A DNA stretch of 64,000 nt, taken from the NCBI GenBank assembly GCA_046598315.1, contig JBKJIY010000079.1, forward strand, positions 4,931 to 68,930, written 5' to 3'. Positions 5,224 to 61,910 of the stretch are shown here, piece after piece (the stretch's first letter is position 1; each line of letters starts with the position of its first letter). Below the pieces are notes generated by a model. That model did not search any database. It was not told where the DNA came from and was given only the letters and a program-made list of their open reading frames with translations. A program made the translations under genes and the position numbers. The DNA is from Gemmatimonadaceae bacterium (GTDB taxonomy: Bacteria > Gemmatimonadota > Gemmatimonadetes > Gemmatimonadales > Gemmatimonadaceae).

Positions 5224-6390
5224 TCAGTTGGCGAGTGCAGGGCGTCCGGGTGCCAGCTCGCGCTCGAGGAAAGACGAGATCACCCGATACGCCAACTGCG
5301 CGCCGAGACCCGCCGGCGCCAGGTCGAAGCCGTGCTCGGCCCACGGAAGCTCCACGGCGATCACGGGCACGCCCGCGGCGCGCAGCGCGCGCGCCGCAGA
5401 GCGGTTGAAGTCCGCTTTCACCACGTGATCGCGCGCGCCATAGAGCAGCAGCGTGGGGGGCAGGCCCGGCCGGATGTGCGACACCGGCGACGCGTCGCGG
5501 TAGTGCGCTGCCTGTTCAGCCGGCGTGCCGCCCAGGTAGTTGCGCAGCACCTCCTGCACGCCGATCGGGTCGGGGCGCGGCAGGTCCACGTAGCCCTTGA
5601 CGAGATCGAATGGCGCATAGAGGGAGACGACCGCGCGGATGTGGAGGGGACCGGGCGTGTACGCCGCCAACTCGGCGAGCTGTCCGCCCGAGGAACGCCC
5701 CAGGAGGGCGACGCGGGCCGTGTCGATGCGCCAGGCGGATGCCGAATCGCGCAGCAGCGCGAGCGCGCCGCGCACGTCGTCGAGCTGGCCCGGAAAGCGC
5801 GTCTCCGGCGCGTGCCGGTAGTCGATGGCCGCCACGGCGAATCCGCGCTGCGCGAGGACGCGGCTGACGTTCCGGGCCTGCGTTGGATCGCCCGAGCGCC
5901 AGGCGCCGCCGTAGATCACCACCACCGTGGGCCGCGGCAGCACGCTGGGCCGCGCGTAGAGATGCATTGCCAGCGGGGAGCCGTCGGCGGCGCGGTACGC
6001 GACGACGTGCTCGACGACATCGGGCGATGGCCCGAGCCCGCGCACGGCGGCGACGAGCGAGAAGCGCGGTGGAGAATGCTCGAGCCCCAGTTGCGCCGCC
6101 GCCGAGCGCGCAGCGCCGGCAAAGCGCGCGACCGGCCAGAGCGCGACGCAGGCGCCCGCAACGAGCAGGATACTGAGAACGCCGCGTGCCGAGTGATGCG
6201 CGCGCAACAAGCGCCACACCAGCGGCAGCACGAAGAGATCGAGCAGCGCCAGCAGCGGCGAGAGCTCGCTCGCCGCGACGGCGAGAGTGAGCGTGCCCGC
6301 CGACCAGGGCGGCACGACGACGAACGCCGAGAGCGCGACGAGCGGCACGCCGAGGAGAAAGGCAACAATCTGGGCGACGGAGCTTTTCAC
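5224..6390 (-). CDS. Alpha/beta hydrolase (esterase/lipase-type) with N-terminal multi-TM segment
   Basis: GTG start at 6390. The first 100 or so aa are hydrophobic helices. Oxyanion-type motif VIYGGAWRSGD and nucleophile elbow GRSSGGQLA are present. Confidence 0.75.
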   Translation of the reverse strand: MKSSVAQIVAFLLGVPLVALSAFVVVPPWSAGTLTLAVAASELSPLLALLDLFVLPLVWRLLRAHHSARGVLSILLVAGACVALWPVARFAGAARSAAAQLGLEHSPPRFSLVAAVRGLGPSPDVVEHVVAYRAADGSPLAMHLYARPSVLPRPTVVVIYGGAWRSGDPTQARNVSRVLAQRGFAVAAIDYRHAPETRFPGQLDDVRGALALLRDSASAWRIDTARVALLGRSSGGQLAELAAYTPGPLHIRAVVSLYAPFDLVKGYVDLPRPDPIGVQEVLRNYLGGTPAEQAAHYRDASPVSHIRPGLPPTLLLYGARDHVVKADFNRSAARALRAAGVPVIAVELPWAEHGFDLAPAGLGAQLAYRVISSFLERELAPGRPALAN

Positions 6391-6453
6391 TTCTGTCTTC
6401 CTGTCTTCCTGTCTTCCTGTCTTCCTGTCTTCCTGTCTTCCTGTCTTCCTGTC
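6391..6453. repeat. 8-bp microsatellite: seven perfect ttcctgtc units (6398-6453) plus one 7-bp variant (6391-6397). It reads (GACAGGAA)7-GACAGAA on the minus strand.
   Basis: Counted directly in the sequence. It abuts the GTG start (6390) of the minus-strand hydrolase gene and lies in the divergent intergenic region with the 6620 gene. Confidence 0.95.
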
Positions 6454-6619
6454 TCTCGGAGCAGATTAGCGGACACGGCTCGACCTGCGCTACTGCGCGC
6501 GACAGGTTCCGGGGATTTCGTTGTCCTCGGCCACCGTTCTGCTCATACTGTACCTCACCGGTAACCGGCAACAGTAACCGATCCGTGACCGCGTTCCTTT
6601 TCCTCGTTCCTCGCTCCGC

Positions 6620-7537: not shown

Positions 7538-7590
7538 GCTGGATTCCATCGCGCCGCGGTTGAACTGCGGTCACGGATCACGGGATGTCG

Positions 7591-7674
7591 AGCAAGGAAA
7601 CGGCGGATCTTCATTGAATGGTCGGGCCAACGCGCGAGGAGCCTTCACTCGAGGCGAGGGATCCGTCGTTGCGC
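7591..7674 (+). repeat. Diverged copy (D) of the ~100-bp inverted-repeat intergenic element family
   Basis: The left end agcaaggaaacggcggat pairs with the reverse complement of atccgtcgttgcgc. The interior attgaatgg...gggcc resembles copy B. It shares the flank tgaactgcg with copy E. It is shorter and more degenerate than the other copies. Confidence 0.4.
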
Positions 7675-7726
7675 CCCGCGTCCGTGCCATCCGTGACCGC
7701 CGTTGGCCAGGGCGCACGGGAGCAGG

Positions 7727-9265: not shown

Positions 9266-9305
9266 GCGATGTACTACGGAAAGAGGACCCGGACTGTTCC
9301 GAAAG

Positions 9306-10151
9306 CTACTCCCGTCGCAGCGTGGCCTCGATGAGGCCGTAGGGCTCGGGAGCGGGGACGAAGATCTCGTTCGTGTTGGGGAGCCCGAACGGCGTGAGGT
9401 CCACCACGAGATGATGCCGGTTGGGCATCGTCAGGCGAATCTCGTCCATCGCGGCGCAGGCGTCCAGCGCTGCCTGGCCCATGGCATAGAGGGTATGCTG
9501 CACGGACTTGCTGTCGTGCTCGGAGAAGGCGGCGAGCATGGCGCGGCGCACGACGTCGAAGTGAGCGGCGGCGCCACTGGCATCACGGTATCTCCACTGC
9601 GCGGTGATGGAAGTGGCCAGAATGCGGTCCTCCGTCTCGCGTAGCGTCGTGTACCCATCGCGTGGGTAGCCGGTGAACGCCGACCGCGCCGATTTGAGCA
9701 CGACGAGCCCTTCGATTCCCGCGTGGACCACTGGCGCCTGCCCCCGCTCGAGGCGCACCGTCGCGGTGCGTGCCTCGCCGCCGGCATGCTCGAAGGCGTG
9801 GTCGTGCGCATCGGCTCCGCCAGGCAGCCGCCGCCAGCCGTGTTCCGCCACGCGTACGCGCGACACGCTCGCCGACGGGCTCGCGCCCAGAAAGTGCCTG
9901 GCAAGGACGAGCGCGAACTCTTCCGGCGCACCGAGCGCGTCCTCCGCGGCCCTTGCATATACGGTGTTCTTCATGGTGTCGGTGGGGAGCACGTCGCTGT
10001 TGTCCCCATCGCGATGCGCCCGCTCGAACGCGCCCTCCAGCGCGATGTCCACCGTGAGATCCCGGATCTCGTGTCGCGCACCGTGGCGAATGACCTTCAC
10101 CAGCCGCACCGCCGACTTGCCGTAGCTGTTGCTGGCCAGAACGACGCCCAT
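9306..10151 (-). CDS. uox: Cofactor-independent urate oxidase (uricase)
   Basis: 281 aa. The N-terminus NSYGKSAVRLVKV, the motif LPTDTMKNTVY and the two-T-fold length are typical of bacterial uricase. Pathway context supports the call. Confidence 0.9.
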   Translation of the reverse strand: MGVVLASNSYGKSAVRLVKVIRHGARHEIRDLTVDIALEGAFERAHRDGDNSDVLPTDTMKNTVYARAAEDALGAPEEFALVLARHFLGASPSASVSRVRVAEHGWRRLPGGADAHDHAFEHAGGEARTATVRLERGQAPVVHAGIEGLVVLKSARSAFTGYPRDGYTTLRETEDRILATSITAQWRYRDASGAAAHFDVVRRAMLAAFSEHDSKSVQHTLYAMGQAALDACAAMDEIRLTMPNRHHLVVDLTPFGLPNTNEIFVPAPEPYGLIEATLRRE

Positions 10152-10154
10152 CGG

Positions 10155-10511
10155 TCAGCTCCCCCGGTAGGTGGAGTAGCCGAAAGGGCTGAGCAGCAGC
10201 GGCACGTGATAGTGCTGCGCGCCAGGCGCCACATGAAAGCGGATGACGATCTCCTCGTAGAAGCTCTCGCGCATCGCGGTGGCGAAGTAGCTGCCGACGG
10301 AGAAGGTCAGCTCGTACGTTCCCGCCTCGAGCGCCGTGGCGGGGGGAACGAGCGCCACCACGCGCCCATCGGCGTCCGTCATCGCGCGGCCGATCACACC
10401 GCCGTCGTGCGGCGCGCCGGCGGCGCGCAGCACGACGGCGATTCCCGCGGCCGGCCGGCCGAGCGAGGTATCGAGAACGTGCGTGCTGATGGAATTCGTC
10501 GTGCCGGTCAT
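10155..10511 (-). CDS. uraH: 5-hydroxyisourate hydrolase (transthyretin-like)
   Basis: The ATG at 10511 gives a 118-aa product. ISTHVLDTSLGRPAAG and the diagnostic C-terminal YRGS tetrapeptide are present. Confidence 0.92.
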   Translation of the reverse strand: MTGTTNSISTHVLDTSLGRPAAGIAVVLRAAGAPHDGGVIGRAMTDADGRVVALVPPATALEAGTYELTFSVGSYFATAMRESFYEEIVIRFHVAPGAQHYHVPLLLSPFGYSTYRGS

Positions 10512-11035
10512 GGTCCGCCGTCCTCGTGAGGTACGATCAGCTTCTCGAGCCGAAGCCGGGTGATCTCGCACTGCTCCGCCGCGGCGATGCCGAGCTCGGT
10601 GACGCGATCGTGCGCCAGCCGCCGCTCGAGTGCGTCGAGTATCTCGCCGGCGCCACGTCCGGCCGCGCGGATGATGAAGACGAAGCCGAACTGGCTCTCG
10701 TACTGCGTGTTGAGGGCCACGAGCCGCCGCTGCATCGCGTCGGTGGCATCTCCCACCGCTGTCTGCTCGTCCGCAGACCACCCACGCGCGGCGTCAGGCA
10801 CGGGCGCGGCCGCGGCTCGCTCGCCGATGCGCGGGTGATGCGCGAACGCCTCCAGCCAGTCGGTCTCGTGCATCATGCCACTCACGTCGTCCGCGGTGCG
10901 CAGCAGGGCGGAGCGCGTGCCGAACGGCCGGCGCACGAGCATCGCCTCCACCCACGCGCGCGAGCCGCAGCAGGCGAGGAGCGCGTCTGCGGCCTCGTCG
11001 CGGGGCATGGCGTTCAACGTGGCGAGTGTGAGCAT
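10508..11035 (-). CDS. uraD: OHCU decarboxylase
   Basis: The ATG at 11035 gives a 175-aa product. Motifs CCGSRAWVEAM, AFAHHPRIGE and FGFVFIIRAAGR are present. It overlaps HIU hydrolase by 4 nt and the allantoicase stop by 1 nt. Confidence 0.88.
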   Translation of the reverse strand: MLTLATLNAMPRDEAADALLACCGSRAWVEAMLVRRPFGTRSALLRTADDVSGMMHETDWLEAFAHHPRIGERAAAAPVPDAARGWSADEQTAVGDATDAMQRRLVALNTQYESQFGFVFIIRAAGRGAGEILDALERRLAHDRVTELGIAAAEQCEITRLRLEKLIVPHEDGGP

Positions 11036-12039
11036 CAGGCGGTCGACGGCCGGCCGAACAGGCGCAGGCGCGCGACTCCGCCGTCGGGATAGATGTTGAG
11101 GCGCACATGCGTGGCCAGACCAGCGGCGCCGGCCACAGCGAACCGGTGTCGTGCGTGCGGCTGCAGCGGGGTGTGCGGCACGAGCGCCGTCCAGCGCACC
11201 GAGTCGCTGGCGAGTGCCTCGGCGGAGGCACCAGGCAGCTCGCAGCACTCCATCATGCACGACCCCGGCGCATTTCCCTTGTAGTGGTCGGTATCCAGCT
11301 CCACCCCCTCGATGGCGCCAGGTGCGCCGAGCTTCACGATGATCCAGTCGTGGCCCGGTCCGCGCCGGCGGCGGGTCTCCCAGCCGTTCCCCATGTGCGT
11401 GGAGCGCCCAGGCATGATGAGGTTCTGCCGGTGCCCGAAGAACATGTCGCTGCACAGCACGGCAAACCCGCCGTTCTCCACCGCCGCCAGGTCCACCAGC
11501 TCGCCACGCCGGTCGCCCCAGTCGGGCACCACGTCGCCATGCACGCGCAGCCGGGCGACGCCGCCATCCGGAAAGATGTTGAGCCGGAGGTGCGTCACCC
11601 GCTGCTCGTCGGTCACGGCGAAGGCATTGCGCGCGTCGCCGGCGAGCGTCGTCCCCAGCAGGATCTCGCGCCAGTCGGTCGTGTCGCTCGCCAGCTCCGC
11701 CAGTGAGGGAACACCGGGGAGCGAGCAGGCGTCGATGCTCGCGCGCTCGGGGAAATTGCCTCGGAAGAAGCTCGTGTCGATCACCACGCCGCGCACCACG
11801 CCGGCCGCGCCCAACCGCACGATGGCCCAGTCGTGGCCCGGCGTGCGGCGGCGGCGCGTCTCCCATCCGTCCATCCACTTGCCGCGCTCGGTGTACGCGC
11901 CCTCGCGCCACTCGGCCGGCGTCGCCTTGAGCAGCCCCTCTTTGGGCGCGAAGAACTCGTCGTTCGCCATCACGACCACTCCGCCAAGCTGCTCGGCGGC
12001 GAGATCGATCAACTCCGCGAAATCTGGTGATTCGCTCAT
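11035..12039 (-). CDS. alc: Allantoicase
   Basis: ATG at 12039 (MSESPDFAELIDLAAE). The duplicated allantoicase repeat appears as WMDGWETRRRR and GNGWETRRRRGPGHDW. Confidence 0.9.
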   Translation of the reverse strand: MSESPDFAELIDLAAEQLGGVVVMANDEFFAPKEGLLKATPAEWREGAYTERGKWMDGWETRRRRTPGHDWAIVRLGAAGVVRGVVIDTSFFRGNFPERASIDACSLPGVPSLAELASDTTDWREILLGTTLAGDARNAFAVTDEQRVTHLRLNIFPDGGVARLRVHGDVVPDWGDRRGELVDLAAVENGGFAVLCSDMFFGHRQNLIMPGRSTHMGNGWETRRRRGPGHDWIIVKLGAPGAIEGVELDTDHYKGNAPGSCMMECCELPGASAEALASDSVRWTALVPHTPLQPHARHRFAVAGAAGLATHVRLNIYPDGGVARLRLFGRPSTA

Positions 12040-12055
12040 GGTCGCCTGGAACCGG

Positions 12056-13390
12056 TCAGGTGAGGAGACGGCCGGTGGGGCCGCCGACGAACTGTCCTTC
12101 GCGATAGACGATCGCCCCCGCCACCACGGTGGCTTGCACCACCCCGTGCAGCACGAGCCCCTGGTACGGGGTGAGCGAATGCCGGTGCTGGAGCTGCGTA
12201 CCGTCCACGGTGAACGCCGCATCGGGGTCCCACACCACCAGGTCTGCGTCGAGGCCGGCGGCGATGCGTCCCTTGCGATGCGCCAGTCCAGCCAGCGCCG
12301 CGGGCGCGGCGCTCATCTTCTCGGCCATGATGCTCAGGCCAGCGCCGTGCTGGCGCGCCACGGTCCATGCAGCCGGGAGCGTCAACTGCAGCGAGGAAAT
12401 GCCGCCCCACGCCGCGAAGAAGTCACCGGTGTGGAGGGCCTTGAGCGCCGGCGGACAGGGAGAATGATCGGAGACGATCATCTCGATCCCCTCGCTCTGC
12501 ACCGCCTGCCAGAGCGCCTCGCGGTTGGCGCGGCCGCGAATGGGCGGAGCGCACTTGAATTGCGTGGCCCCATCGCCGATGTCCTCGGCGGCGAACGCCA
12601 GATAGTGAGGACAGGTCTCGGCGCTCACCCGCACTCCCCGCGCCCGCGACTCGGCCAGCAGCGGCAACGAGGCGCACGAGGTGAGGTGCACGATGTGCAC
12701 GCGTGCCCCGAACTCCTCGGCCAGACGCACCACGAGGCGCGCCGCCTCCGTCTCGGCCGCATCCGGACGCGAGGCCAGATAGGTGGCGTACGCGCGCACG
12801 TCGCCCTCGATGATGGTCTGCAGCTGCTCCGGCAGCTCCGCGTGCACCATGAGCGGCGCATCCAGTTCCGCGAGGATCGGGAGCGCCTCGCGCAGGTCCG
12901 GCTCGGCGACATGGCGAAACTCGTCCACGCCCGACGGCACGAGAAAGCACTTGAACAGGCGGACGCCGGCGGCATGGAGCGGCCGCAGCTCGCCGGCATT
13001 GCCGGGCACCACGCCGCCGGTGAAGCCCACGTTCACCCAGCATCGGTCTCGCGCCGCAGCGCGTTTCGCCTCGACGGCGGCCACGCTCGTGGTGGCGGGA
13101 ATGCTGTTGAGCGGCATGTCGAACAGTGTGGTGACGCCGCCCGCCGCCGCCGCGCGCGTGGCCGAGTCGAAGCCCTCCCAGTCGCTGCGACCCGGATCGT
13201 TCACGTGCACATGGGTATCCACGAGGCCCGGCATCAACGCATCGGTGCCCGCGTCGAAGGTCGCGTGACTGGAGGGAAAATCGCTCCAGTCGGACACCCG
13301 CGCGATCACGCCATCGCGCACATGGATGCTCGCGGCGCGCACTCCCTCGGGCAGCACGACGCGACGGCTGCGGATGACGAGCGCGTTCAT
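12056..13390 (-). CDS. allB: Allantoinase (cyclic amidohydrolase)
   Basis: ATG at 13390 (MNALVIRSRRVVLPEG). The metal motif LVDTHVHVNDPGR, FKCFL (carbamylated-Lys region) and VSDHSPC are present. Confidence 0.88.
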   Translation of the reverse strand: MNALVIRSRRVVLPEGVRAASIHVRDGVIARVSDWSDFPSSHATFDAGTDALMPGLVDTHVHVNDPGRSDWEGFDSATRAAAAGGVTTLFDMPLNSIPATTSVAAVEAKRAAARDRCWVNVGFTGGVVPGNAGELRPLHAAGVRLFKCFLVPSGVDEFRHVAEPDLREALPILAELDAPLMVHAELPEQLQTIIEGDVRAYATYLASRPDAAETEAARLVVRLAEEFGARVHIVHLTSCASLPLLAESRARGVRVSAETCPHYLAFAAEDIGDGATQFKCAPPIRGRANREALWQAVQSEGIEMIVSDHSPCPPALKALHTGDFFAAWGGISSLQLTLPAAWTVARQHGAGLSIMAEKMSAAPAALAGLAHRKGRIAAGLDADLVVWDPDAAFTVDGTQLQHRHSLTPYQGLVLHGVVQATVVAGAIVYREGQFVGGPTGRLLT

Positions 13391-13403
13391 CGGGTCGCGA
13401 CGC

Positions 13404-14222
13404 TCACGCGGTATCGGACCAGAAGCGCCGCAGCAGATTGCCGGCGACCTGGCGACGATACTCGGCGGTGGACCGGATGTCGTCGATCGGGGCGATCTCG
13501 CTGGCGAGCTCGCGCACCGCGTCATCGATGCTCCCCGAGGCCGCGAGCACCCCCTCGGTGCGCGGCAGGCGGATCACCGTGGCCGCGACGCTCCCCAGGG
13601 CGATGCGCGGTGCGGGCGCGCGCACGGCGGCCATCACGAGCTTGCTGATCGCCTGCGCCGCTCGCGTGCCGACTTTGCGGAACCATTGACGTCCCTCGAT
13701 GCGCGGAATCTCCACGCGCACGATCAGCTCGTCCGCGTCCATGACGGTCGCGCGATAGCCGGTGTAGAAATCCGCGAAGGCCACACGTCGCTCGCCCGCG
13801 ACGCTCCCCAGCACGATCGTCGCGCCGGCCGCTGCGAGCACGGGGAGCGCATCACCCGCCGGTGACCCATTGGCGATGTTGCCGCCGAGTGTGCCGCGGT
13901 TCTGGATCTGGATGCCGCCGATCATGCCCGCCGACGACACGAGCATCGGCACGCGCTGCGCCACGACCGGCGACGCGATGATGGACGTGTAGCTCGCCAG
14001 CGCACCGATGTGCAGCACGTCGTCGCGCACGTCGATCGTGCGCAGCGAGTCGAGGCCGCCGATGTCCACGAACCTGCGCGCCCGGAGCGTACCGAAATTC
14101 AGCCCCACGAACAGATCGGTGGCGCCGGCGATCGGCACGAGCGGCTCCGCATGCATCATCACGAGCGCTTCGTCCAGCGTGGCCGGCGTGCGGAGGGTGA
14201 GCGGGCTCGTCGCCGTCCTCAT
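13404..14222 (-). CDS. Xanthine dehydrogenase family, FAD-binding (medium) subunit
   Basis: The ATG at 14222 gives a 272-aa product. Motifs PIAGATDLFV and RGTLGGNIANGSPAGD are present. ATGA overlap with the Fe-S subunit gene. Confidence 0.85.
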   Translation of the reverse strand: MRTATSPLTLRTPATLDEALVMMHAEPLVPIAGATDLFVGLNFGTLRARRFVDIGGLDSLRTIDVRDDVLHIGALASYTSIIASPVVAQRVPMLVSSAGMIGGIQIQNRGTLGGNIANGSPAGDALPVLAAAGATIVLGSVAGERRVAFADFYTGYRATVMDADELIVRVEIPRIEGRQWFRKVGTRAAQAISKLVMAAVRAPAPRIALGSVAATVIRLPRTEGVLAASGSIDDAVRELASEIAPIDDIRSTAEYRRQVAGNLLRRFWSDTA

Positions 14223-14659
14223 GCCTCGTGCTCCTGGTTGGCGCGCTGGATGGCCCGATAGATCGCCTCGTAGCCGGTGCACCGGCAGAGGTTGCCCGCG
14301 AGGGCGACGCGGATCTCCTCGAGCGTCGCGTCCCTGCGCAGCGTGGAGGCCACCATGATCATCCCCGGCGTGCAGATGCCGCACTGCGCGCCCGCTTCGT
14401 TCATGAAGTGGTGCTGCAGCGCGTGGTCGTCGCCCAGTCCCTCGATGGTGCGGACATCGGCGTCGCGCACCTGGGCGAAGGGCACGAGACAGGAGACCAC
14501 CGCCTCGCCGTCTACGAGCACCGTGCACGCGCCGCACTCGCCCTCGCCGCACCCTTCCTTGGTGCCGGTCAGGCCGCAATCCTCGCGCAGCACGTCCAGA
14601 AGCCGCCGCATCGGATGCGCCTCGACGTCTGCGACCGCGCCGTTCAGCGTGAAGCGCAT
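14219..14659 (-). CDS. Xanthine dehydrogenase family, [2Fe-2S] (small) subunit
   Basis: 146 aa. Cysteine clusters GCGEGECGACTV and QCGICTPG...CRCTGY are present. Confidence 0.9.
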   Translation of the reverse strand: MRFTLNGAVADVEAHPMRRLLDVLREDCGLTGTKEGCGEGECGACTVLVDGEAVVSCLVPFAQVRDADVRTIEGLGDDHALQHHFMNEAGAQCGICTPGMIMVASTLRRDATLEEIRVALAGNLCRCTGYEAIYRAIQRANQEHEA

Positions 14660-16752
14660 GCGCTCATCACGAGTTCCGGCGTGGCGGGGATCTCCCTGAT
14701 GTCGATGCCGAGATGGCGGATGGCATTGACGACCGCAGGCGCCGGCCCATCCACGGGCAGCTCACCCAGCCCCTTGGCGCCATACGGGCCGTCAGCGTAC
14801 GGATTGTCCAGGATGACGATGTCCATCGTGGGCGTGTCGAGCGTGGTGGGGATGGTGTAGTTCGTGAGCGATGCGTTCGCCATGCCGCCATCCTTCATGA
14901 CCACGCGCTCGAGGAGGGCGAAGCCGAGCCCCTGCGCGCTGCCCCCTTCGATCTGTCCCCGTGCCAGCCCCGGATGGATCGCCCGTCCGAACTCCTGCAC
15001 CGCGGTGAAGTGCACTGGCCGCACCTCGTACGTGTCGGCGTCGAGCTCCACCTCCGCCACGTCGCATCCCCACGAGTAGGTCGCGTAGGCGTCGCCACGG
15101 TAGGCGTCCTCATCCCAGACGATCCAGGCTGGCGGGTCGTGCTGTTTGAGGATGGTGAGTGGACCGTGCCGTGCGAAGTACTCGGCGGGAGAGAGGGAGC
15201 CGAGCGTCGCGCGCATCTCCGTGGCGCAGCGCTCGAGGATCTTGCCCACCACCATGCACGTGCGGGAGGCCACAGTGGGGCCGCTGTCCGGCACGAGCAT
15301 GGTGTCCGGCTGCGCCACCTCGATCTGTTCGTACGGGACGCCAAGGGCATCGGACACGATCTGTGCGTGCATGGTGCGCGTGCCCTGTCCGATCTCCGTG
15401 CTGGCGACGAGGATGCGTACACCCGTGGCGGTGAGCTCGAGCGCCGCCTTGGATTCCAGCCGGTGCTCTCCGCTGCCCGTGAACCCGGCGCCGTGATAGA
15501 ACAGGGCGAGGCCGATGCCGCGGTTGGTGCCTCTGTATTCCTCGCGCTTGCGATGGAAGTCGGTCCGGGCGACGGCTTCGCGCAGCACGGCCAGCGCGCT
15601 GCAGTCCTCGGTGAGTGTCTGGCCAGTGGCCGTCGTATCCCCCGGACGAAGCGCATTGACCTCGCGCACCGCCACCGGGTCCATCCCGAGCGCATCGGCG
15701 ATGCGGTCCATGTGCGCCTCGATGGCGAACAGCGTCTGCGGCGCTCCGAAGCCGCGGAAGGCGCCGTTGGGCGGCGTGTTGGTGAACATGGCGCGGCCGC
15801 TGATGCGCACGTTGTCGCAGCGGTAGGGGCCGGCCGCATGGATGCTGCCGCGCGAGATCACGACGGGACTGAGCGTGACGTACGCGCCGCCGTCGATGAG
15901 GACGTCCACCTCCATCGCCACGAGCCGGCCGTCGCGCATGACGCCGGTGCGGTGCCGCACGATGGAGGGATGGCGCTTGGTGGTGGCGAGCATGTCCTCC
16001 GTGCGGTCGTAGATGATCTTGACCGGCGTGCCCGATTTCAGTGCCAGCAGCGTGGCGTGTCCGGCGATCATCGACGGGTATTCCTCCTTGCCGCCGAACC
16101 CGCCACCCGTCTCCGTCTGCACCACACGGATGTGCGCGTCCGGACCCAGGAGGCTGCGGAGTGCTTTCACGACATAGAAGGGGCACTGGATGGACCCATG
16201 GACCGCCACGCCATCCGCCTCGGGGATGGCGATCACCCCGTTGGGCTCGATGTACACATGCTCCTGGTGGCCCGTCCGGTACGTCGCGTCCACGACGACG
16301 TCGGCGGTCGCGAAGCCTTCCTCCAGGTTGCCCTTGTCGATGGAGAGGCCCTTGAGGAGTTGCGTGGAGCGCTCGACGTCGAGCAGTGGCTCTTCGGCGT
16401 CGTACTCGATGTGCACGCGAGCGGCGAGGAGCGTCTCCCGATCGGCGTGCGCGAGCAGGAGGATCGGTTCGGCGAGATGCCGGACCTCGTGCTCCGCCAG
16501 GAATGGCTGGTCGTATTCCACCAGCGCGACGATGTTCTTTCCCTGGGCGGGGATGTCGCGGTAGTCGACGATGGTGAAGCCGGACTGGTCGAAGTCGAGC
16601 GTTACCGACCTGATGCGCCCGCGCGCGATCGTCGAGCGGATCGTCCGGCCGAAGAGCATGCCGGGCCAGGCGAGATCGTCCGCATAGCGCGCACGGCCCG
16701 TGGCCTTTCCGATTCCATCCTTTCTCGCAACGCTTGTTCCGACGACGGGCAT
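14644..16752 (-). CDS. Xanthine dehydrogenase family, molybdopterin-binding (large) subunit
   Basis: ORF 14644..17256. The ATG at 16752 gives the canonical N-terminus MPVVGTSVARKDGIGKATGRARYADD. Motifs GGGFGGKE and FRGFGAPQ are present. It overlaps the small-subunit gene by 16 nt. Confidence 0.88.
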   Translation of the reverse strand: MPVVGTSVARKDGIGKATGRARYADDLAWPGMLFGRTIRSTIARGRIRSVTLDFDQSGFTIVDYRDIPAQGKNIVALVEYDQPFLAEHEVRHLAEPILLLAHADRETLLAARVHIEYDAEEPLLDVERSTQLLKGLSIDKGNLEEGFATADVVVDATYRTGHQEHVYIEPNGVIAIPEADGVAVHGSIQCPFYVVKALRSLLGPDAHIRVVQTETGGGFGGKEEYPSMIAGHATLLALKSGTPVKIIYDRTEDMLATTKRHPSIVRHRTGVMRDGRLVAMEVDVLIDGGAYVTLSPVVISRGSIHAAGPYRCDNVRISGRAMFTNTPPNGAFRGFGAPQTLFAIEAHMDRIADALGMDPVAVREVNALRPGDTTATGQTLTEDCSALAVLREAVARTDFHRKREEYRGTNRGIGLALFYHGAGFTGSGEHRLESKAALELTATGVRILVASTEIGQGTRTMHAQIVSDALGVPYEQIEVAQPDTMLVPDSGPTVASRTCMVVGKILERCATEMRATLGSLSPAEYFARHGPLTILKQHDPPAWIVWDEDAYRGDAYATYSWGCDVAEVELDADTYEVRPVHFTAVQEFGRAIHPGLARGQIEGGSAQGLGFALLERVVMKDGGMANASLTNYTIPTTLDTPTMDIVILDNPYADGPYGAKGLGELPVDGPAPAVVNAIRHLGIDIREIPATPELVMSACASR

Positions 16753-16831
16753 CGACGACTTCCTGAGGCTTCGGTTTGCGAAGATGCTCGGTGCGATCCA
16801 GCGTGGCAAGTGAACTGCGACGGGGCCTGAC

Positions 16832-16934
16832 AGCGGGAGGAGCGGATTCTCCGACTTGTACCGGAAACTGCCGAATCGATGCGCGACTGATCCGGCCGTT
16901 CTCGGTTCAATTCGTTTGATCCGCTCCTCACGCT
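16832..16934 (-). repeat. Copy E of the ~100-bp inverted-repeat intergenic element family, inverted relative to copies A, B and C
   Basis: Termini are agcgggaggagcggat (16832-16847) and atccgctcctcacgct (16919-16934), a 15/16 inverted repeat. The reverse complement aligns along its whole length with copy B, for example gaattgaaccgagaacggccggatc against gaaattgaatcgagacaggccggatc. Confidence 0.75.
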
Positions 16935-17024
16935 TTTGCCGTTGGTCCTTGAGCGACATGTGCTCGATGCGCCGACGCCGTAGGCGCACTTCCCCGCGCA
17001 CCTCGCTGCAACCATCTTCCCGCC

Positions 17025-17594
17025 ATGCCGAACTTCGACGTACGGGTGGACTATCCAGCGTGGGTGAACGAGGTGGTGGACTGGAATCGCCCCTACGCCA
17101 CGGACGAGGACCGCATGCGGCTGGCCATCGCCATGTCGCACGAGAACGTGGAGCGCGCGACGGGTGGACCGTTCGGGGCGGCCGTGTTCGAGGGCGCGAG
17201 CGGGCGACTCGTCGCCGTGGGCATGAACTCCGTTGTCCGCTTGAACAATTGCACACTGCACGGCGAGATGGTGGCGTTCATGATGGCGCAGCGCCGGCTC
17301 GGCTCCTTCACGCTGAGCGGCCCCGGCCTGCCGGTGCACGAGCTCTTCACCTCCTGCGAGCCGTGCGCCATGTGTCTCGGCGCGACACTCTGGAGCGGCG
17401 TGAAGCGTGTGGTGTACGGCGCGGGCCGCGAGGATGCGTCGCGCCTGAGCTTCGAGGAGGGGCCGGTCTTTCCCGAGTCGTACCGCTATCTCGAGGCGCG
17501 CGGGATCACCATCGTTCGCGACGTCCTGCGCACCGAGGCGCAGCAGGTCATGGAGCGCTACCGCTCGACCAGCGGACGGATCTACAACGGGTGA
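17025..17594 (+). CDS. guaD: CMP/dCMP-type zinc deaminase, probably guanine deaminase
   Basis: 189 aa. The zinc motifs HGEMVA and CEPCAMC are present. The gene is divergent from the xanthine dehydrogenase operon. The substrate is inferred from context. Confidence 0.75.
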   Translation: MPNFDVRVDYPAWVNEVVDWNRPYATDEDRMRLAIAMSHENVERATGGPFGAAVFEGASGRLVAVGMNSVVRLNNCTLHGEMVAFMMAQRRLGSFTLSGPGLPVHELFTSCEPCAMCLGATLWSGVKRVVYGAGREDASRLSFEEGPVFPESYRYLEARGITIVRDVLRTEAQQVMERYRSTSGRIYNG

Positions 17595-17601
17595 GGGTAC
17601 G

Positions 17602-18939
17602 ATGACCGACTCGAACGACGCCTCTGGCGCGCTGCGCGCCGCGAACCTCGCCTTCGCCACACGGTATCCCGGCGAGGCGGGGGGGCGTCAGCCCGTGCAC
17701 ACGGTGTACGGCGGCGCGCAGCTCTTTCGGGGCGACACGACACGCAAGCTGGGCGATCTCGCACTACGCGCAATGGACGAGTATGCGTCGGACGCGGCGG
17801 CCCTTGGACGCGCGCTCGGCATCGCGGACCATCCCGCGCTCGATGTGATCCACCGCCGCGTCCGGGAAAAGCTCGCGCGTGAGCCGGTGGAGGATTTCCG
17901 CATCGATTTCGAGGACGGATACGGCATCCGTCCCGATGCCGAGGAGGACGCGCATGCGCTCGCGGTGGGCGATGCCCTCGCGCGCGGGATGGAGGATCAG
18001 ACCCTCTCTCCCTTCATCGGTCTGCGTGTGAAACCGCTGAACGAGGAGCTCCGCGCGCGCAGCGTGCGGACGCTGGAGCTCGTCGTCTCACGCGTGATGG
18101 AGAAGTCGGGTTCCCTTCCCGAGAACTTCGTCGTGACCATCCCCAAGGTCACGATCATCGAACAGGTAGAGCACACGGTGAGCGTGCTCGCCGCGCTCGA
18201 GCGCAAGGTCGGACTGGCCAATGGCACGCTGCGCTTCGAGGTGATGGTGGAGACCCCGCAGATCGTGCTCGACGCCGAGGGTCGCTCTCTCCTGCCGCGT
18301 CTTCCCGCCGCGGCGCAGGGGCGGCTCACTGGTGCCCACTTCGGGACATACGACTATACCGCGGGGGTGAACATCACCGCGGCGCATCAGCGCATGCGTC
18401 ACCCGGCGTGCGATTTCGCGAAGCACATGATGCAGGTGGCGTTCGCGGGCACGGGTGTCTGGCTGTCGGACGGCTCCACCACCGTGATGCCCGTGCCCAT
18501 TCATCGCGCTGGCCCGGATGCGCCGCTCGGCGCCGAGCAGCGGGCGGCCAACGAGGCCAGCGTGCACGCTGCCTGGCGACTGCACTTCGACGACGTGACG
18601 CATTCACTCGTCGGCGGCTTCTATCAGGGATGGGATCTGCATCCGGCGCAGCTCGTGAGCCGCTACGCCGCGCTGTACGCGTTCTTCCTCGACGGCATCG
18701 ATGCCGCTGCCGCGCGTCTGAGCAATTTTGTGGGGAAGGCCGCGCAGGCGACGCTCATCGGAGACGTGTTCGACGACGCCGCGACCGGGCAGGGGCTGCT
18801 CAACTTCTTCCTGCGCGGCGTGAACTCGGCGGCGATCACCGAGGAGGACGCCGTGCGACTGACGAGTCTGTCGGTGGATGAGCTGCGGTCACGATCGTTC
18901 GTGACGATCCTGCGAAACCGTGGAGGCGGGCTGGCGTAG
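17602..18939 (+). CDS. Uncharacterised TIM-barrel protein resembling the HpcH/HpaI aldolase, citrate-lyase beta and malate synthase superfamily
   Basis: 445 aa, starting 7 nt after guaD. The motifs FRIDFEDGYG and RFEVMVETPQ resemble the CitE/malate-synthase metal and substrate motifs. I recognise no characterised orthologue. Confidence 0.55.
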   Translation: MTDSNDASGALRAANLAFATRYPGEAGGRQPVHTVYGGAQLFRGDTTRKLGDLALRAMDEYASDAAALGRALGIADHPALDVIHRRVREKLAREPVEDFRIDFEDGYGIRPDAEEDAHALAVGDALARGMEDQTLSPFIGLRVKPLNEELRARSVRTLELVVSRVMEKSGSLPENFVVTIPKVTIIEQVEHTVSVLAALERKVGLANGTLRFEVMVETPQIVLDAEGRSLLPRLPAAAQGRLTGAHFGTYDYTAGVNITAAHQRMRHPACDFAKHMMQVAFAGTGVWLSDGSTTVMPVPIHRAGPDAPLGAEQRAANEASVHAAWRLHFDDVTHSLVGGFYQGWDLHPAQLVSRYAALYAFFLDGIDAAAARLSNFVGKAAQATLIGDVFDDAATGQGLLNFFLRGVNSAAITEEDAVRLTSLSVDELRSRSFVTILRNRGGGLA

Positions 18940-18941
18940 TA

Positions 18942-39184: not shown

Positions 39185-39310
39185 GGACGGGAAAGGCGCG
39201 GGCTGCTCTACGGTGCAACCGACGCCGCGCGGGCGCCAGAGGATGCGGCCGTTTTTGTTCCGATCGCTGGATTCCTCCTCCTGCCTTGTCTCGTTGCCCT
39301 CGACATCAAA

Positions 39311-39407
39311 AGCGTGAGGAACGGATTCAACGAATTTCTCACAAGAACTGCCGGATCGAGCACACCTCCGGCCGTTTCCGATTAATCGGTGGATCCGTGC
39401 CTTCGCT
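39311..39407 (+). repeat. Copy A of the ~100-bp inverted-repeat intergenic element family
   Basis: The left end agcgtgaggaacggat (39311-39326) is identical to the left end of copy C. It has the central ccggatcgag. The right end atccgtgccttcgct (39393-39407) is an imperfect inverted repeat. Confidence 0.7.
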
Positions 39408-39557
39408 CTGGGTGGTTCAGTCGTGATCCACATCAAGAAGTGTGAGCGTTCTCGCGCATCGAGTTACTTCCTCTCGCCGCCGCCCCGCCGAGATCGTATC
39501 TTCGGCATCGCTCCGCAGGGAGCATCGCCCCAGTCGCGCCGTCCCTCTTCGAACGCC

Positions 39558-40622
39558 ATGTCCCGCTCATTTCGTATCTACTGCGCCTCGCTCACCAGCC
39601 TCGCGCTGTGCGCCGCTCCCGCTCGTGCCCAGGAGCCGGCCGCCTGGGGCACTCCGCTCGATTTCGCCACCTTCTCCATCGCTGCCGTGGACCGTCGTAC
39701 CGGCGAGACGGGTGTGGCCGTGACCACGCGCGTGCCCTGCGTGGGGAATGGCGTGCCGTGGGTCCGAGCCGGCGTGGGTGCCGTGGCCACGCAGGCCAAC
39801 ACGCGCACCGAATTCGGCGCGGAGATCCTCGACCTCATGGCCGCCGGCGCGTCGCCCGAGGATGCGCTCCGGCGCGTCCTCGCCGCGGATACCGGCTCGC
39901 GAAGCCGGCAAGTGGGCGTCGTCGCGATCGACGGACGTGCCGCCAACTTCACCGGCGCCGGGACCACCCAATGGGCGGGCGGCAGAAAGGGCGTGAATTT
40001 CACCACCCAGGGGAATCTCCTCGTCAGCGGTGCGACGATCGACGCCGTCGCCGCCAACTTCGAAGCGAGCGAGGGATCGCCTCGCCATCTCGCCGACCGG
40101 CTGATCGACGCCGTCGCCGCCGGCCACGCCGCCGGCGGCGACGCCCGCAAGGGACGCGCGCAGTCGGCCGCCGTGGTCATCGCCGATCCCCGTGCCGGCC
40201 GCTCGCGACGCGCCGACAGGATCACCGCGTTCATCAACGTCTGCGAGCATCCGGAGCCGGTCGCCGAACTGCGCCGCATCTACAATACCATTTCGCAGAC
40301 GCTCGGCTTCCGCACGCTGGAGCAGCAGAGCGGCAACGATGTGTGGCAGCTCAAGGTCATGCTGCACGCGCTCGGCTTCTACCGCCCTTCCGACGCGCCG
40401 CGACTGGTGCGCGACTCGCTGGCCACGCAGTACACGGGTGACGTGATCCCGGCCGTCAACGCCTTCCGCGCCGCCGAGCAGCTCGCTGGCCCCTCGCTGG
40501 GCTCGCCCTCGGGCCTGGTGGACCGCGAGACGGTCGACCGGCTGTGGGCGGCACTCGACCGCGCAGGGAAGATGCGCGCGGTGCGCGAGGAACTGCTCGA
40601 TCTCACCGCCGTCCGCCGCTAG
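39558..40622 (+). CDS. DUF1028 (Ntn-hydrolase-like) protein fused to a C-terminal peptidoglycan-binding domain, secreted
   Basis: The ATG at 39558 gives signal peptide MSRSFRIYCASLTSLALCAAPARAQ. ATFSIAAVDRRTGETGVAVTT is the DUF1028 N-terminus. The C-terminal LKVMLHALGFY...YTGDVIPAVNAFR...LVDRETVDRLW is PG_binding_1-like. Confidence 0.78.
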   Translation: MSRSFRIYCASLTSLALCAAPARAQEPAAWGTPLDFATFSIAAVDRRTGETGVAVTTRVPCVGNGVPWVRAGVGAVATQANTRTEFGAEILDLMAAGASPEDALRRVLAADTGSRSRQVGVVAIDGRAANFTGAGTTQWAGGRKGVNFTTQGNLLVSGATIDAVAANFEASEGSPRHLADRLIDAVAAGHAAGGDARKGRAQSAAVVIADPRAGRSRRADRITAFINVCEHPEPVAELRRIYNTISQTLGFRTLEQQSGNDVWQLKVMLHALGFYRPSDAPRLVRDSLATQYTGDVIPAVNAFRAAEQLAGPSLGSPSGLVDRETVDRLWAALDRAGKMRAVREELLDLTAVRR

Positions 40623-51011: not shown

Positions 51012-51401
51012 TTATTGAAGCAGCGCCGCTCCAGGGCCGATCATGCCGGAGCTGGAGGCCACGATCACGCCGGTGCCGGAAGCGAGCATGTACCCGGAGC
51101 TCGAGGCCACGATCACGCCGGTGCTGGACGCCATGTCGTACCCGGAGCTCGACGCCACGATCACGCCAGTGCTGGACGCCACGATGACGCCAGTGCTGGA
51201 TGCCACGATGACGCCAGTGCTGGATGCCACGATGACGCCAGTGCTGGACGCCACGATGACGCCAGTGCTGGATGCCATGTCGGTGCTCGATGCAACGATC
51301 ACTCCGTATCGCCCGATGGCGTCGGTCGTGCCCTGCGCGCTTGCGGTGGCCGTGGTGGCGAGGAGCAGGATAGCCGTCAGGGAGGAAAGACGCTTGATCA
51401 T
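51012..51401 (-). CDS. Small Sec-secreted repeat protein carrying 8 GVIVAS motifs, five of them as perfect STGVIVAS octapeptides
   Basis: ORF 51012..51467. The ATG at 51401 gives signal peptide MIKRLSSLTAILLLATTATASAQG. The mature part is GRYGVIVASSTDMAS(STGVIVAS)x5...SSGYDMASSTGVIVASSSGYMLASGTGVIVASSSGMIGPGAALLQ. GC-rich third positions and the same strand as the downstream genes support this frame. Confidence 0.7.
   Translation of the reverse strand: MIKRLSSLTAILLLATTATASAQGTTDAIGRYGVIVASSTDMASSTGVIVASSTGVIVASSTGVIVASSTGVIVASSTGVIVASSSGYDMASSTGVIVASSSGYMLASGTGVIVASSSGMIGPGAALLQ
51059..51306. repeat. Tandem DNA repeat inside the repeat-protein gene: 2 x 48 bp, then 5 x 24 bp (51155-51274), then degenerate units
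   Basis: The unit is ccacgatgacgccagtgctggatg. Units at 51179, 51203 and 51251 are identical. The unit at 51227 differs at 1 nt and the unit at 51155 at 2 nt. Confidence 0.92.
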
Positions 51402-51579
51402 GGAATGCTCGCGGGAGAGAGGATGCGAGTGCGACGACCGCCGCACCACTGGATCGAGCTCCATCATTCACTCTTCGGCGTCCCGGGACGTGTTCGAATG
51501 CGAGGTGGCGCGCGCTCCTGCACGATCATTTCACTTCTCCCTCCCGGGGACAATGTGGGCGAGGGTGCTTTTGTCCTCG

Positions 51580-51614
51580 AAGCTGAGCCCCTCCTCAGCT
51601 TGGCGCTGTTTTTT
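51580..51614 (+). terminator. Terminator-like hairpin plus T6 run in the leader region upstream of the DUF2132 gene
   Basis: Arm aagctgag (51580-51587), loop cccctc, arm ctcagctt (51594-51601), then ggcgctg and tttttt (51609-51614). A weaker hairpin cgagg...cctcg at 51560-51579 precedes it. Confidence 0.35.
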
Positions 51615-51679
51615 CTTGTGGTCGGTCAGTAGCGTGCGCGACGAGCGCGCAGAACCCACTCTCGATTAGCATTCAGCGC

Positions 51680-53248: not shown

Positions 53249-53300
53249 CGTTCGAATATAGGTGCTGCCTCTCGCTTAGGGTGTGGGGTCAAAACCGAAG

Positions 53301-53402
53301 AGCGGGAGGAACGGATTCACCGAAATTGAATCGAGACAGGCCGGATCGACCCACGGATTCGGGTGTTTTTCGGGAACATTCGACTGATTCGTTCCTCCCG
53401 CT
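53301..53402 (+). repeat. Copy B (best preserved) of the ~100-bp inverted-repeat intergenic element family
   Basis: Termini are agcgggaggaacggat (53301-53316) and attcgttcctcccgct (53387-53402), a 15/16 inverted repeat. Pairing extends to ccgaag/ttcgg (53295-53407). The central motif is ggccggatcgaccc. Confidence 0.8.
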
Positions 53403-53441
53403 TTCGGAGTGTGTTCCATCACACGCATCGGGCGCGACGTG

Positions 53442-60852: not shown

Positions 60853-61620
60853 ATGACCACCAGAGCCACAGCGTTCGCTGCACTCATCGCCGGCAGCATC
60901 CTGCTCGCGGCGTGCGGCACCCGGGAAGCGCCCGGCCCCCTCGAGCCGTCCGGCGCCATGGGCCGCGTGCGGCTCGTCAACGTGATCACGGACGAGGCAC
61001 GCGGCCGCGTGAACGCCATCCTCGAAGGCCTGCCGTTCACGGTGAACCTCACGTACACGCAGAGTGCGCCGGCCAACCTGCCGGCGCCCTCGTCGGCGCC
61101 GTACGCCGCCGTGCTCGCGGGCAACCGTTCATTCATTCTCAAGCGTACCGCCGACACGAACGTCGTCGTGGCGACGGTGCCGTTCGCCGTGGAGGCGGGA
61201 CAGGTGCGCTCCGTCTACGCCATCGGTGGCGCGGCGGGCTCGACGATCACCGGCTTCGTGACGTCGGATACCAATACCGTACCGGCGGCGGGCCAGGCGC
61301 GGGTGCGCGTGGTGCAGTTGAGCCCCACCGCCGGCGCGGTGGACATCTTCATCACCGCCCCGAATGCCGACCTCGCGACGGCGACGCCGAGCTTCGCGGC
61401 GGTCCCGACTCAACGCGCCACAGCGTATCTCACCCTGCCGGCGGGGACGTATCAGCTCCGCGCCGTGCCGGGGGGCACCCTCCCCGCCGCGCGAGCGGCG
61501 GCCGTGAGCATCACCCTGCCGAGCGTCGTGCTCGGCAGCAGTGCGCAGCGCACGATCGTCACGGCAGACAACAGCACGGGTGGCACCCCACTGCGGGCGT
61601 TCGTGCTGGTCGATCAGTAA
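60853..61620 (+). CDS. DUF4397-domain lipoprotein
   Basis: The ATG at 60853 gives lipobox ILLAACG. RVRLVNV... and ARVRVVQLSPTAGAVDIF...LPAGTYQLRAVP are tandem DUF4397-like units. Confidence 0.72.
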   Translation: MTTRATAFAALIAGSILLAACGTREAPGPLEPSGAMGRVRLVNVITDEARGRVNAILEGLPFTVNLTYTQSAPANLPAPSSAPYAAVLAGNRSFILKRTADTNVVVATVPFAVEAGQVRSVYAIGGAAGSTITGFVTSDTNTVPAAGQARVRVVQLSPTAGAVDIFITAPNADLATATPSFAAVPTQRATAYLTLPAGTYQLRAVPGGTLPAARAAAVSITLPSVVLGSSAQRTIVTADNSTGGTPLRAFVLVDQ

Positions 61621-61645
61621 GTACGAAGTCACCGAATCGAATCAA

Positions 61646-61686
61646 GAACGGCCGAATCGCCCCGGAGCATTCGGCCGTTTTCGTTG
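61646..61686 (+). terminator. Rho-independent terminator after the SusC/SusD/DUF4397 unit
   Basis: Arm aacggccgaat (61647-61657), an 11-nt loop, arm attcggccgtt (61669-61679), followed by ttcgttgatt. Confidence 0.7.
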
Positions 61687-61712
61687 ATTGTACTTCTGGC
61701 GCTTTCGACAAG

Positions 61713-61814
61713 AGCGTGAGGAACGGATATTACCGATGCAACAGCAGATGATCGGATCGACCGGGAAGCAAGCCGGTCGCCTCCGTTGAATCAGGAAGAT
61801 CTCTTCCGCACGCT
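61713..61814 (+). repeat. Copy C of the ~100-bp inverted-repeat intergenic element family
   Basis: The left end is agcgtgaggaacggat (61713-61728). The right end atctcttccgcacgct (61799-61814) is a 13/16 inverted repeat. The central motif is tcggatcgaccgg. Confidence 0.75.
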
Positions 61815-61910
61815 TTTGCGTGTTTGCTCGTGCAAGCTACCAGGAAGCACGCGGTGTCGTCGACGTCAGGCAACACCAGGACGTCGTGCTCTGGTCATCC
61901 CGGAGATTCG

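Follow-up and report, generated by a model that had tools for sequence, protein, structure and literature searches.

The spacer between the genes for a PQQ dehydrogenase and a GNAT protein holds an imperfect palindrome of about 100 nt, and related sequences lie in other spacers of the window, i.e. the whole stretch of 64 kb that was analysed. Is this repeat a piece of mobile DNA, an operator shared by several genes, a hairpin that serves its host, or an RNA gene? Our analysis suggests a mobile or formerly mobile, lineage-restricted, non-autonomous palindromic family of soil Gemmatimonadaceae, a reading to which we assign a probability of roughly 0.7. The family is new, but the kind of element is well known, and nothing here amounts to a new kind of system.

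The source of the window is an uncultured, Gemmatimonadaceae-like soil bacterium. The window has a G+C content of ~68% and its sequence is present in soil-metagenome DNA runs. Homologues of its DUF1028 and DUF6986 proteins carry the source labels Gemmatimonadaceae or Gemmatirosa, as does the rpoD gene adjoining a metagenomic copy of the element at locus L122, and the top non-self identities of the window proteins are 79% (DUF1028) and 83% (DUF6986). Pfam matches in the ~45 ORFs of the window include no transposase domain, as the earlier note had stated, no integrase was found among these ORFs, and no second dispersed repeat family is visible in the 64 kb.

Copies of the element in the window

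The flagged copy, B, is located on the + strand at 53298-53405 (53301-53402; for each copy, the limits given by the earlier note are added in brackets). It lies in a tandem arrangement between the stop codon of the PQQ dehydrogenase gene (53442, - strand) and the start of the GNAT gene (53248, - strand). Its terminal 16-mers are at 53301-53316 and 53387-53402 (1 mismatch), its apical CGGATC is at 53342-53347, and the palindrome reaches outward to CCGAA/TTCGG at 53295-53408. Copy B scores 80 bits with a covariance model (CM) and folds with -57.7 kcal/mol (z -5.1). The best-preserved hairpin of the window is copy E on the - strand at 16829-16937 (16832-16934), with a CM score of 102.5 bits, a fold of -57.8 kcal/mol (z -7.5), two exact 16-mers (16919-16934 and 16832-16847) and the apical CGGATC at 16889-16894. 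It sits within a purine-catabolism cluster, where it occupies the 272-bp spacer between the divergent genes for the Mo subunit of XDH (- strand, start ATG at 16752) and a deaminase (+ strand, start at 17025). Copy A is likewise found between divergent genes, i.e. those for a peptidase S9 (- strand, start at 39172 or 39184) and a DUF1028 protein (+ strand, start at 39558). It was detected by nhmmer on the + strand at 39308-39410 (39311-39407), scores 70.9 bits with the CM, and combines an exact left 16-mer (39311-39326) and the apical CGGATC (39352-39357) with a decayed right arm (39392-39407). Copy C (+ strand, 61710-61817; 61713-61814) scores 86.8 bits, its 16-mers being at 61713-61728 and 61799-61814 (3 mismatches) and its apical CGGATC at 61753-61758.

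The earlier note had counted at least five copies in 64 kb. The count of five stands, but the fifth member is a sequence absent from that note, C', and not the one it had listed as copy D. C' (+ strand, 61613-61706) forms a tandem pair with C, lying 3 nt to its left in the convergent spacer between the stop codons of a DUF4397 gene (61620, + strand), which is overlapped by the left end of C', and of a gene for a BNR protein (61911, - strand). C' is full-length and degenerate, i.e. it has kept the inner arms together with the apical hairpin GGCCGAATC...GATTCGGCC, and its terminal 16-mers are decayed; it is recovered with an HMM E-value of 3e-7 and a CM score of 33.3 bits (E 7e-6 over the window), and its DNA fold has a z of -3.8. 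D, by contrast, is a separate 140-nt palindrome (7563-7704, no strand assigned) in a convergent spacer, with an outer stem GCGGTCACGGAT/ATCCGTGACCGC and a DNA fold of z -3.3. Its common ground with the family is limited to ACGGATC-type motifs; with the family HMM nhmmer did not recover it, and with the CM it reaches 14 bits (E 0.34) over 7563-7704, so that its membership is unsupported.

For A, B, C and E the coordinates and motifs agree with the earlier description, including the shared CGGATC centre, and both kinds of model support them. An HMM built from these four copies recovers each of them with E-values of 1e-25 to 3e-30 and, in keeping with their palindromic nature, also matches the reverse strand of each. 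The covariance model R1, run with filters off, scores them at 71-102 bits (E 1e-15 to 1e-23). The degenerate 16-mer AGCGKGAGGARCGGAT has five exact matches in the window and one with a single mismatch; with up to three mismatches there are 11 matches versus 3.5 +/- 1.7 in dinucleotide shuffles, and 0 of 100 shuffles reach 11. The similarity is thus better than that of shuffled sequence, and chance similarity among the copies is ruled out by E-values of 1e-25.

From Pfam matches and codon-position GC, which define the gene boundaries around the copies, we confirmed that all of them are intergenic. Three long mechanical ORFs traverse A, E and B, and in each case the coding signal ends before the element. 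Distances of 8-22 kb separate the copies, which lie among genes of housekeeping type in mixed orientation, and every gene context that had been claimed is represented: divergent (A and E), tandem (B) and convergent (C' and C). Their pairwise identity is only 45-68%, which indicates that they are old, and their decay is asymmetric. B and E retain an exact or near-exact 16-mer at each end, A and C at a single end. Nothing in these partly decayed sequences points to present-day activity.

Anatomy and pairing of the hairpin

The element is a non-coding, imperfect palindrome of ~105-115 bp with three conserved parts, i.e. the ends AAAAGCGKGAGGARCGGAT, the apex GGCCGGATC, and A/T runs at the foot. 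From the outside in, the foot with its A-run and T-run is followed by the 16-19 bp end, a loosely paired internal stretch and the apical stem, and the full order reads AAAAGCGKGAGGARCGGAT, the loose stretch with a second CGGAT, AACGGGAACGGCCGGATCAA, a loop of 4-14 nt, TTGATCCGGCCGTTCCCGTT and, after a further stretch, ATCCGYTCCTCMCGCTTTT. The apical stem AACGGGAACGGCCGGATCAA/TTGATCCGGCCGTTCCCGTT is conserved in the well-preserved copies, the apex is as conserved as the ends, the CGGAT motif occurs three times per arm, and the starts of the two 16-mers are spaced by 81-87 bp. By inspection, neither internal self-complementarity nor a GTAG is seen in the 16-mer AGCGKGAGGARCGGAT, which pairs only with the opposite arm.

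The stem-loop of ~100 nt that the earlier note had anticipated from the terminal pairing is borne out by folding. As RNA, the window copies have minimum free energies (MFE) between -39 and -58 kcal/mol (z -2.0 to -7.5), and folding with DNA parameters agrees with this (z -2.6 to -5.5). For the well-preserved metagenome copies the RNA values lie between -66 and -76 kcal/mol (z -8.5 to -12). In an alignment of nine copies 90% of the cells are paired. Covariation is present as well, as five pairs show compensatory, i.e. double, changes versus 1.5 +/- 1.0 in shuffles (0/500), for example the R in GGARCGGAT with the Y in ATCCGYTCC, but it carries no strand-specific RNA signal. Departures from pairing are balanced between G.U (9) and A.C (7); thus, the constraint does not single out an RNA made from one strand.

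Distribution, gain at an orthologous site and the copy behind rpoD

A scan of metagenome contigs with a strict pattern yielded 23 loci, about half of which are chance matches inside genes, and only ~8 distinct true loci. Real elements are found at L127, L126 (the same as L138), L122, L130, L133, L125, L128 (the same as L129) and L141. Those at L127, L126, L130, L133 and L122 are near-perfect palindromes at unrelated Gemmatimonadaceae loci and show what the window copies have decayed from. Moreover, there are length variants, i.e. one of 64 bp (L125) and others of ~230 bp with a central insert of 125 bp (L128/L129 and L141).

A scan of genome contigs with the bare 16-mer, too unspecific as a pattern, gave 120 single-match loci from all phyla and the full element in none of them, and neither a plasmid collection (searched by blastn) nor viral contigs gave a match. 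No family copies were present in ~140-160 kb of other Gemmatimonadaceae loci; the loci with DUF1028 homologues (L144-L147) and the rpoD loci L148-L154 contained neither copies nor synteny with the A site. None of the loci L121-L158 contained an autonomous insertion sequence with the same ends. As the copies are confined to a few relatives and variable in site, the family is lineage-restricted and polymorphic, like mobile DNA.

Among the relatives, L157 (DUF6986 83% identical) proved the best; its synteny with the window extends gene for gene from 7.7 to 29 kb, i.e. from the gene for glutathionylspermidine synthase (GSP) to that for DUF2891, and L158 shares the purine cluster. In these two loci the spacer between the XDH and deaminase genes is devoid of the element and measures 107 bp (L157) and 129 bp (L158), compared to 272 bp with copy E in the window. 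With the site empty in two outgroups, the best reading of E is that it was gained in the lineage of the window. That relatives keep the flanking genes and have an empty site argues for gain by insertion and against a conserved operator. The doubt of the earlier note about a single operator function was thus justified, and we reject a regulon operator, since relatives that possess the same genes can dispense with an element there. At this site the window has an extra segment of ~165 nt, i.e. E plus ~55 nt, whose exact junctions are obscured by the divergence of the flanking spacer; a CGACG on either side of the segment is probably a chance occurrence in DNA of 68% G+C. L157 has a diverged member of its own (48 bits, positions 2605-2720) at a non-orthologous site between other genes, which is the one family copy in its 21 kb, and no transposase was found among its genes. 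Taken together, the dispersed homologous intergenic copies, the E site that is empty in both relatives, the L157 copy at another site and the better-preserved palindromes at unrelated loci support what the earlier note had favoured, a mobile non-autonomous element or a REP/BIME-like repeat.

Around nine copies, the near-perfect ones included, no direct repeat of 3-9 bp occurs at a consistent offset. The A-run and T-run flanks are inverted and part of the palindrome, i.e. they are not direct repeats. This weakly suggests that there is no target-site duplication, base-exact empty sites being lacking. Logan contigs from the soil runs X1-X4, compared with the part of the window from 44 to 64 kb, contained no joint that skips an element; their unitigs (<1 kb, ~6x) are uninformative on empty sites.

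A different aspect of the family is revealed by an orthologous copy that lies ~18 nt behind rpoD, the gene for the primary sigma factor, in L122, L126 and L127. The divergence of this copy was compared with that of the 4-fold sites in the adjacent gene of 1,185 aa in the three genomes. The identity is 0.69-0.87 for the element and 0.56-0.59 for the 4-fold sites (random expectation 0.40), and the rough distances are 0.19-0.53 and 1.12-1.32, respectively, i.e. the copy changes 2.5-6 times more slowly than the synonymous sites nearby; no difference among the three genomes is found in its 20-bp apical stem or its left 16-mer. Selection may account for this slow change, as may homogenisation (gene conversion) against other copies; least likely, the copy is younger than the species split and the same spot was hit repeatedly. 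In the direction of rpoD transcription the hairpin is followed by T5-6 in three of three genomes. In L155 and L156, whose RpoD is 94-95% identical, the copy is absent and an ordinary G+C-rich hairpin is found there instead; in L155 a histidine-kinase gene lies between rpoD and the downstream GH18-deacetylase-GT2 gene. The T-run, considered alongside the ordinary hairpin that relatives have in this position, points to a predicted use of the element in rpoD termination. Thus, the rpoD copy looks co-opted as a terminator, and the ordinary terminator hairpin appears to have been replaced by it.

Mobile DNA, host hairpins and known repeat families

The rpoD copy raises the possibility that the family consists of host-functional hairpins under selection, i.e. 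bidirectional terminators, mRNA-stabilising stems or sites for a protein that recognises CGGAT(C), and that mobility is incidental or past. Apart from the constraint and the T-run behind rpoD, this possibility is favoured by copy B, whose extended stem (CCGAA.../...TTCGG) is followed by TTTT on the - strand just downstream of the PQQ dehydrogenase gene, and by a simple terminator scan that detects the apical hairpins of B and C'. The same scan, however, finds no more terminator-like matches in the window than in shuffles, and A and E are located between divergent starts, where there is nothing to terminate and termination would make no sense. Furthermore, the same genes are found in relatives that have no element at the E site, decay has affected the window copies asymmetrically, and a terminator role leaves the homology among the dispersed copies unexplained. 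As an account of the whole family we therefore regard host function as unlikely, while some copies have probably been co-opted as terminator hairpins.

A classical MITE, i.e. an internally deleted derivative of a DDE-type insertion sequence that moves by cut-and-paste via its terminal inverted repeats, would have to have produced duplications too short or too decayed to be seen. The terminal inverted repeats of 16-19 bp, the small size without an ORF, the intergenic distribution with presence and absence at orthologous sites (the E site and the rpoD site), and the length variants with internal insertions and deletions are all typical of such families. Nevertheless, a consistent direct repeat of 3-9 bp is missing even at the near-perfect and presumably young copies of L130 and L127, the flanking runs are inverted rather than direct, complementarity extends over the whole length with an apex conserved besides the ends, and an autonomous relative is present in none of the loci seen, which together make this origin improbable.

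Small structured RNA genes or cis-regulatory RNAs made from one strand, the alternative that the earlier note had allowed for, would agree with the stable predicted hairpins and with the presence of some compensatory changes, but are very improbable since Rfam gives no match in the window at the gathering score (relaxed searches return only generic miRNA-precursor hairpins of 18-27 bits versus gathering scores of 77-137), both strands of every copy give scores, G.U departures are balanced by A.C ones, a promoter scan finds no sigma-70-like promoter adjoining any copy, the orientation to the neighbouring genes varies and the E site is dispensable in relatives. CRISPR was rejected as the repeats are inverted, not direct, and form no array, and a retron or other RT-linked RNA as there is no RT gene. 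Integron attC sites were rejected as well, given ends of the type AGCGKGAGG... instead of GTTRRRY, copies 8-22 kb apart in mixed orientation and no integrase.

For the preferred reading, a mobile or formerly mobile non-autonomous family, we speculate that a partner transposase is encoded elsewhere in the genome. This hypothetical enzyme would recognise the conserved ends and possibly the CGGAT that is repeated three times per arm, and would move or copy the element into intergenic DNA without a target-site duplication. Transposition might proceed via a single-strand hairpin intermediate, like that of REPIN/RAYT and IS200/IS605-type systems. The whole-length complementarity, the absent duplication, the adjacent copies and the long persistence speak for an HUH/Y1-type enzyme over DDE cut-and-paste, and within the mobile reading we give such a mechanism about an even chance. 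Once inserted, the hairpin with its A/T-run foot could serve as a terminator or an RNA-stabilising stem in either direction.

In anatomy the family appears closest to REPINs, i.e. REP doublets that are mobilised by RAYTs. A REP unit is a short, imperfectly palindromic sequence marked by a conserved 5' motif (GTAG in E. coli), and RAYTs are Y1/HUH transposases (Pfam Y1_Tnp), typically encoded by a single-copy gene flanked by REPs. To our knowledge, the described REPIN-RAYT systems are mainly proteobacterial. The REPINs of Pseudomonas fluorescens SBW25 consist of two invariant inverted 16-mers, the starts of which are 71 bp apart (81-87 bp here), and a less conserved complementary spacer (PMC3116915). 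The elements described here share the invariant inverted 16-bp ends, the complementary, less conserved spacer and the hairpin of ~100 nt, and they resemble REPINs in their strictly extragenic location in all gene contexts, in adjacent or clustered copies, in the lack of a visible target duplication and in the long vertical persistence, with conserved orthologous copies, that is reported for REPINs. Five copies in 64 kb, all extragenic, may be set beside the tens to hundreds per genome by which REPINs are defined. However, the 16-mer of our family is no short palindrome and shows no evident GTAG-like 5' motif, conservation at the hairpin apex equals that at the ends, the 64-kb window contains no RAYT (Y1_Tnp) gene, and the host belongs to the Gemmatimonadota, with no sequence similarity between the families. 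We do not claim REPIN membership since the 16-mer is no REP-like palindrome and a RAYT is absent as far as the 64 kb show.

ERIC/IRU of enterobacteria, Correia/NEMIS of Neisseria and RUP of Streptococcus pneumoniae are MITE-like palindromic repeats. ERIC, Correia and RUP elements are often co-transcribed with their neighbours; TA target duplications are a feature of Correia and RUP, for both of which IS partners are known or suspected. Our family resembles these three in being non-coding, intergenic, imperfect palindromes of 100-150 bp that give long RNA hairpins able to affect termination or mRNA stability and that occur in indel size variants. It differs from all of these repeats in its lineage, a relationship in sequence is not expected, and it differs from Correia and RUP in that neither a duplication nor a partner was seen. 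The pneumococcal repeats are also covered in PMC3049150.

With bidirectional intrinsic terminators the family has in common a G+C-rich hairpin with an A-run before and a T-run after it on both strands, and several copies directly behind stop codons. In contrast to these terminators, its stem is 5-10 times longer, its copies are homologous, and two of the five window copies are located between divergent starts.

Small palindromic intergenic repeats are known from many bacterial genomes. We know of no REPIN-RAYT-type association described for Gemmatimonadota, and our search of the literature for such repeats in this phylum returned nothing relevant. For soil MAGs the family is of practical relevance, as repeats break assemblies and create spurious ORF extensions; model R1 can be used to mask or annotate those of this family, which are also possible strain-typing markers. 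Going further, one might speculate that the family is a REPIN-like replicator of Gemmatimonadota that is vertically persistent, constrained and free of target duplication, depends on a domesticated HUH/Y1 enzyme or an unrecognised partner that reads the CGGAT motifs, three per arm, and the conserved apex, and has had some of its copies, e.g. the one behind rpoD, adopted by the host as terminators. We hold this scenario to be doubtful as it stands; if true, it would extend the REPIN-RAYT type of long-term association between element and host to a new phylum. The conserved rpoD copy and the apparent replacement of a terminator make the family usable as a test case for how selfish hairpin elements may become host terminators and for REPIN-like persistence outside Proteobacteria.

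A longer subfamily and the GATC content of the element

A subfamily of the intergenic, hairpin-forming repeat element reaches ~230 bp and is found at at least two unrelated loci, i.e. at 4245-4480 of contig L128 (= L129) and at 60-170 of contig L141. It carries a non-coding insert of ~125 bp at the apex of the element, and its copies have an additional left end, GATCAGAAAA, in common. Each repeat element contains one to four GATC sites. In the whole window GATC occurs 476 times vs. ~187 times expected from base composition, i.e. it is ~2.5-fold enriched and thus not avoided.

Other palindromes

The convergent spacer between the esterase and glutathionylspermidine synthase genes, where the earlier note had placed a diverged copy of the element, harbours a 140-nt palindrome (7563-7704) with a perfect 12-bp outer stem, GCGGTCACGGAT/ATCCGTGACCGC, and an inner stem, ACGGCGGATC/GATCCGTCGT. 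ACGGATC motifs are common to this palindrome and the repeat family, but the match between the two is not significant; the palindrome may be a relative, either a different or a very old one, or, alternatively, a bidirectional terminator.

A large palindromic microsatellite lies between convergent genes of the related contig L157 (17845-17973), running from (GGGGTT)n ... AAGCGTGAGAGGTTCGAACCTCTCAC via ~8 units of CCTCTCA to (CCCCAA)n. Its segment AAGCGTGAG is similar to the end of the repeat family, a likeness that may be due to chance.

Purine-catabolism cluster and tandem repeats

The purine-catabolism cluster of the window (9300-18940) encodes uricase, HIU hydrolase, allantoicase, an amidohydrolase, the FAD and Mo subunits of XDH, a deaminase and DUF6986, and its gene order is the same in two related contigs, L157 (1-11344) and L158 (1629-11341). 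In L157 a membrane Urate_ox_N protein replaces the classical uricase.

Two tandem repeats were observed in the window. The BD-FAE esterase gene (5224-6390, minus strand) has ~9 units of the perfect 8-nt repeat CTGTCTTC (6385-6462) directly at its 5' end or upstream of it. As the unit length is not divisible by 3, this tract is probably non-coding, and it is a candidate for a slipped-strand, phase-variable tract. A repeat with a 24-nt period (51038-51301; at least seven overlapping units, 63-78% identity) lies within overlapping ORFs on the minus (51012-51467) and plus strand (51043-51669) and possibly codes for an 8-residue protein repeat.

The element at gene ends and junctions

The decayed left arm of the degenerate copy C' contains the stop codon and the last codons of the DUF4397 gene (61613-61620), and its insertion may therefore have altered the shape of the 3' end of this gene. 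In contig L155 (1437-5048) rpoD is separated from the GH18-deacetylase-GT2 gene by a hybrid histidine kinase of 1,139 aa; the kinase gene is absent from L122, L126 and L127, which have the repeat element at this junction. The element may be a mark of this rearrangement or may have mediated it.
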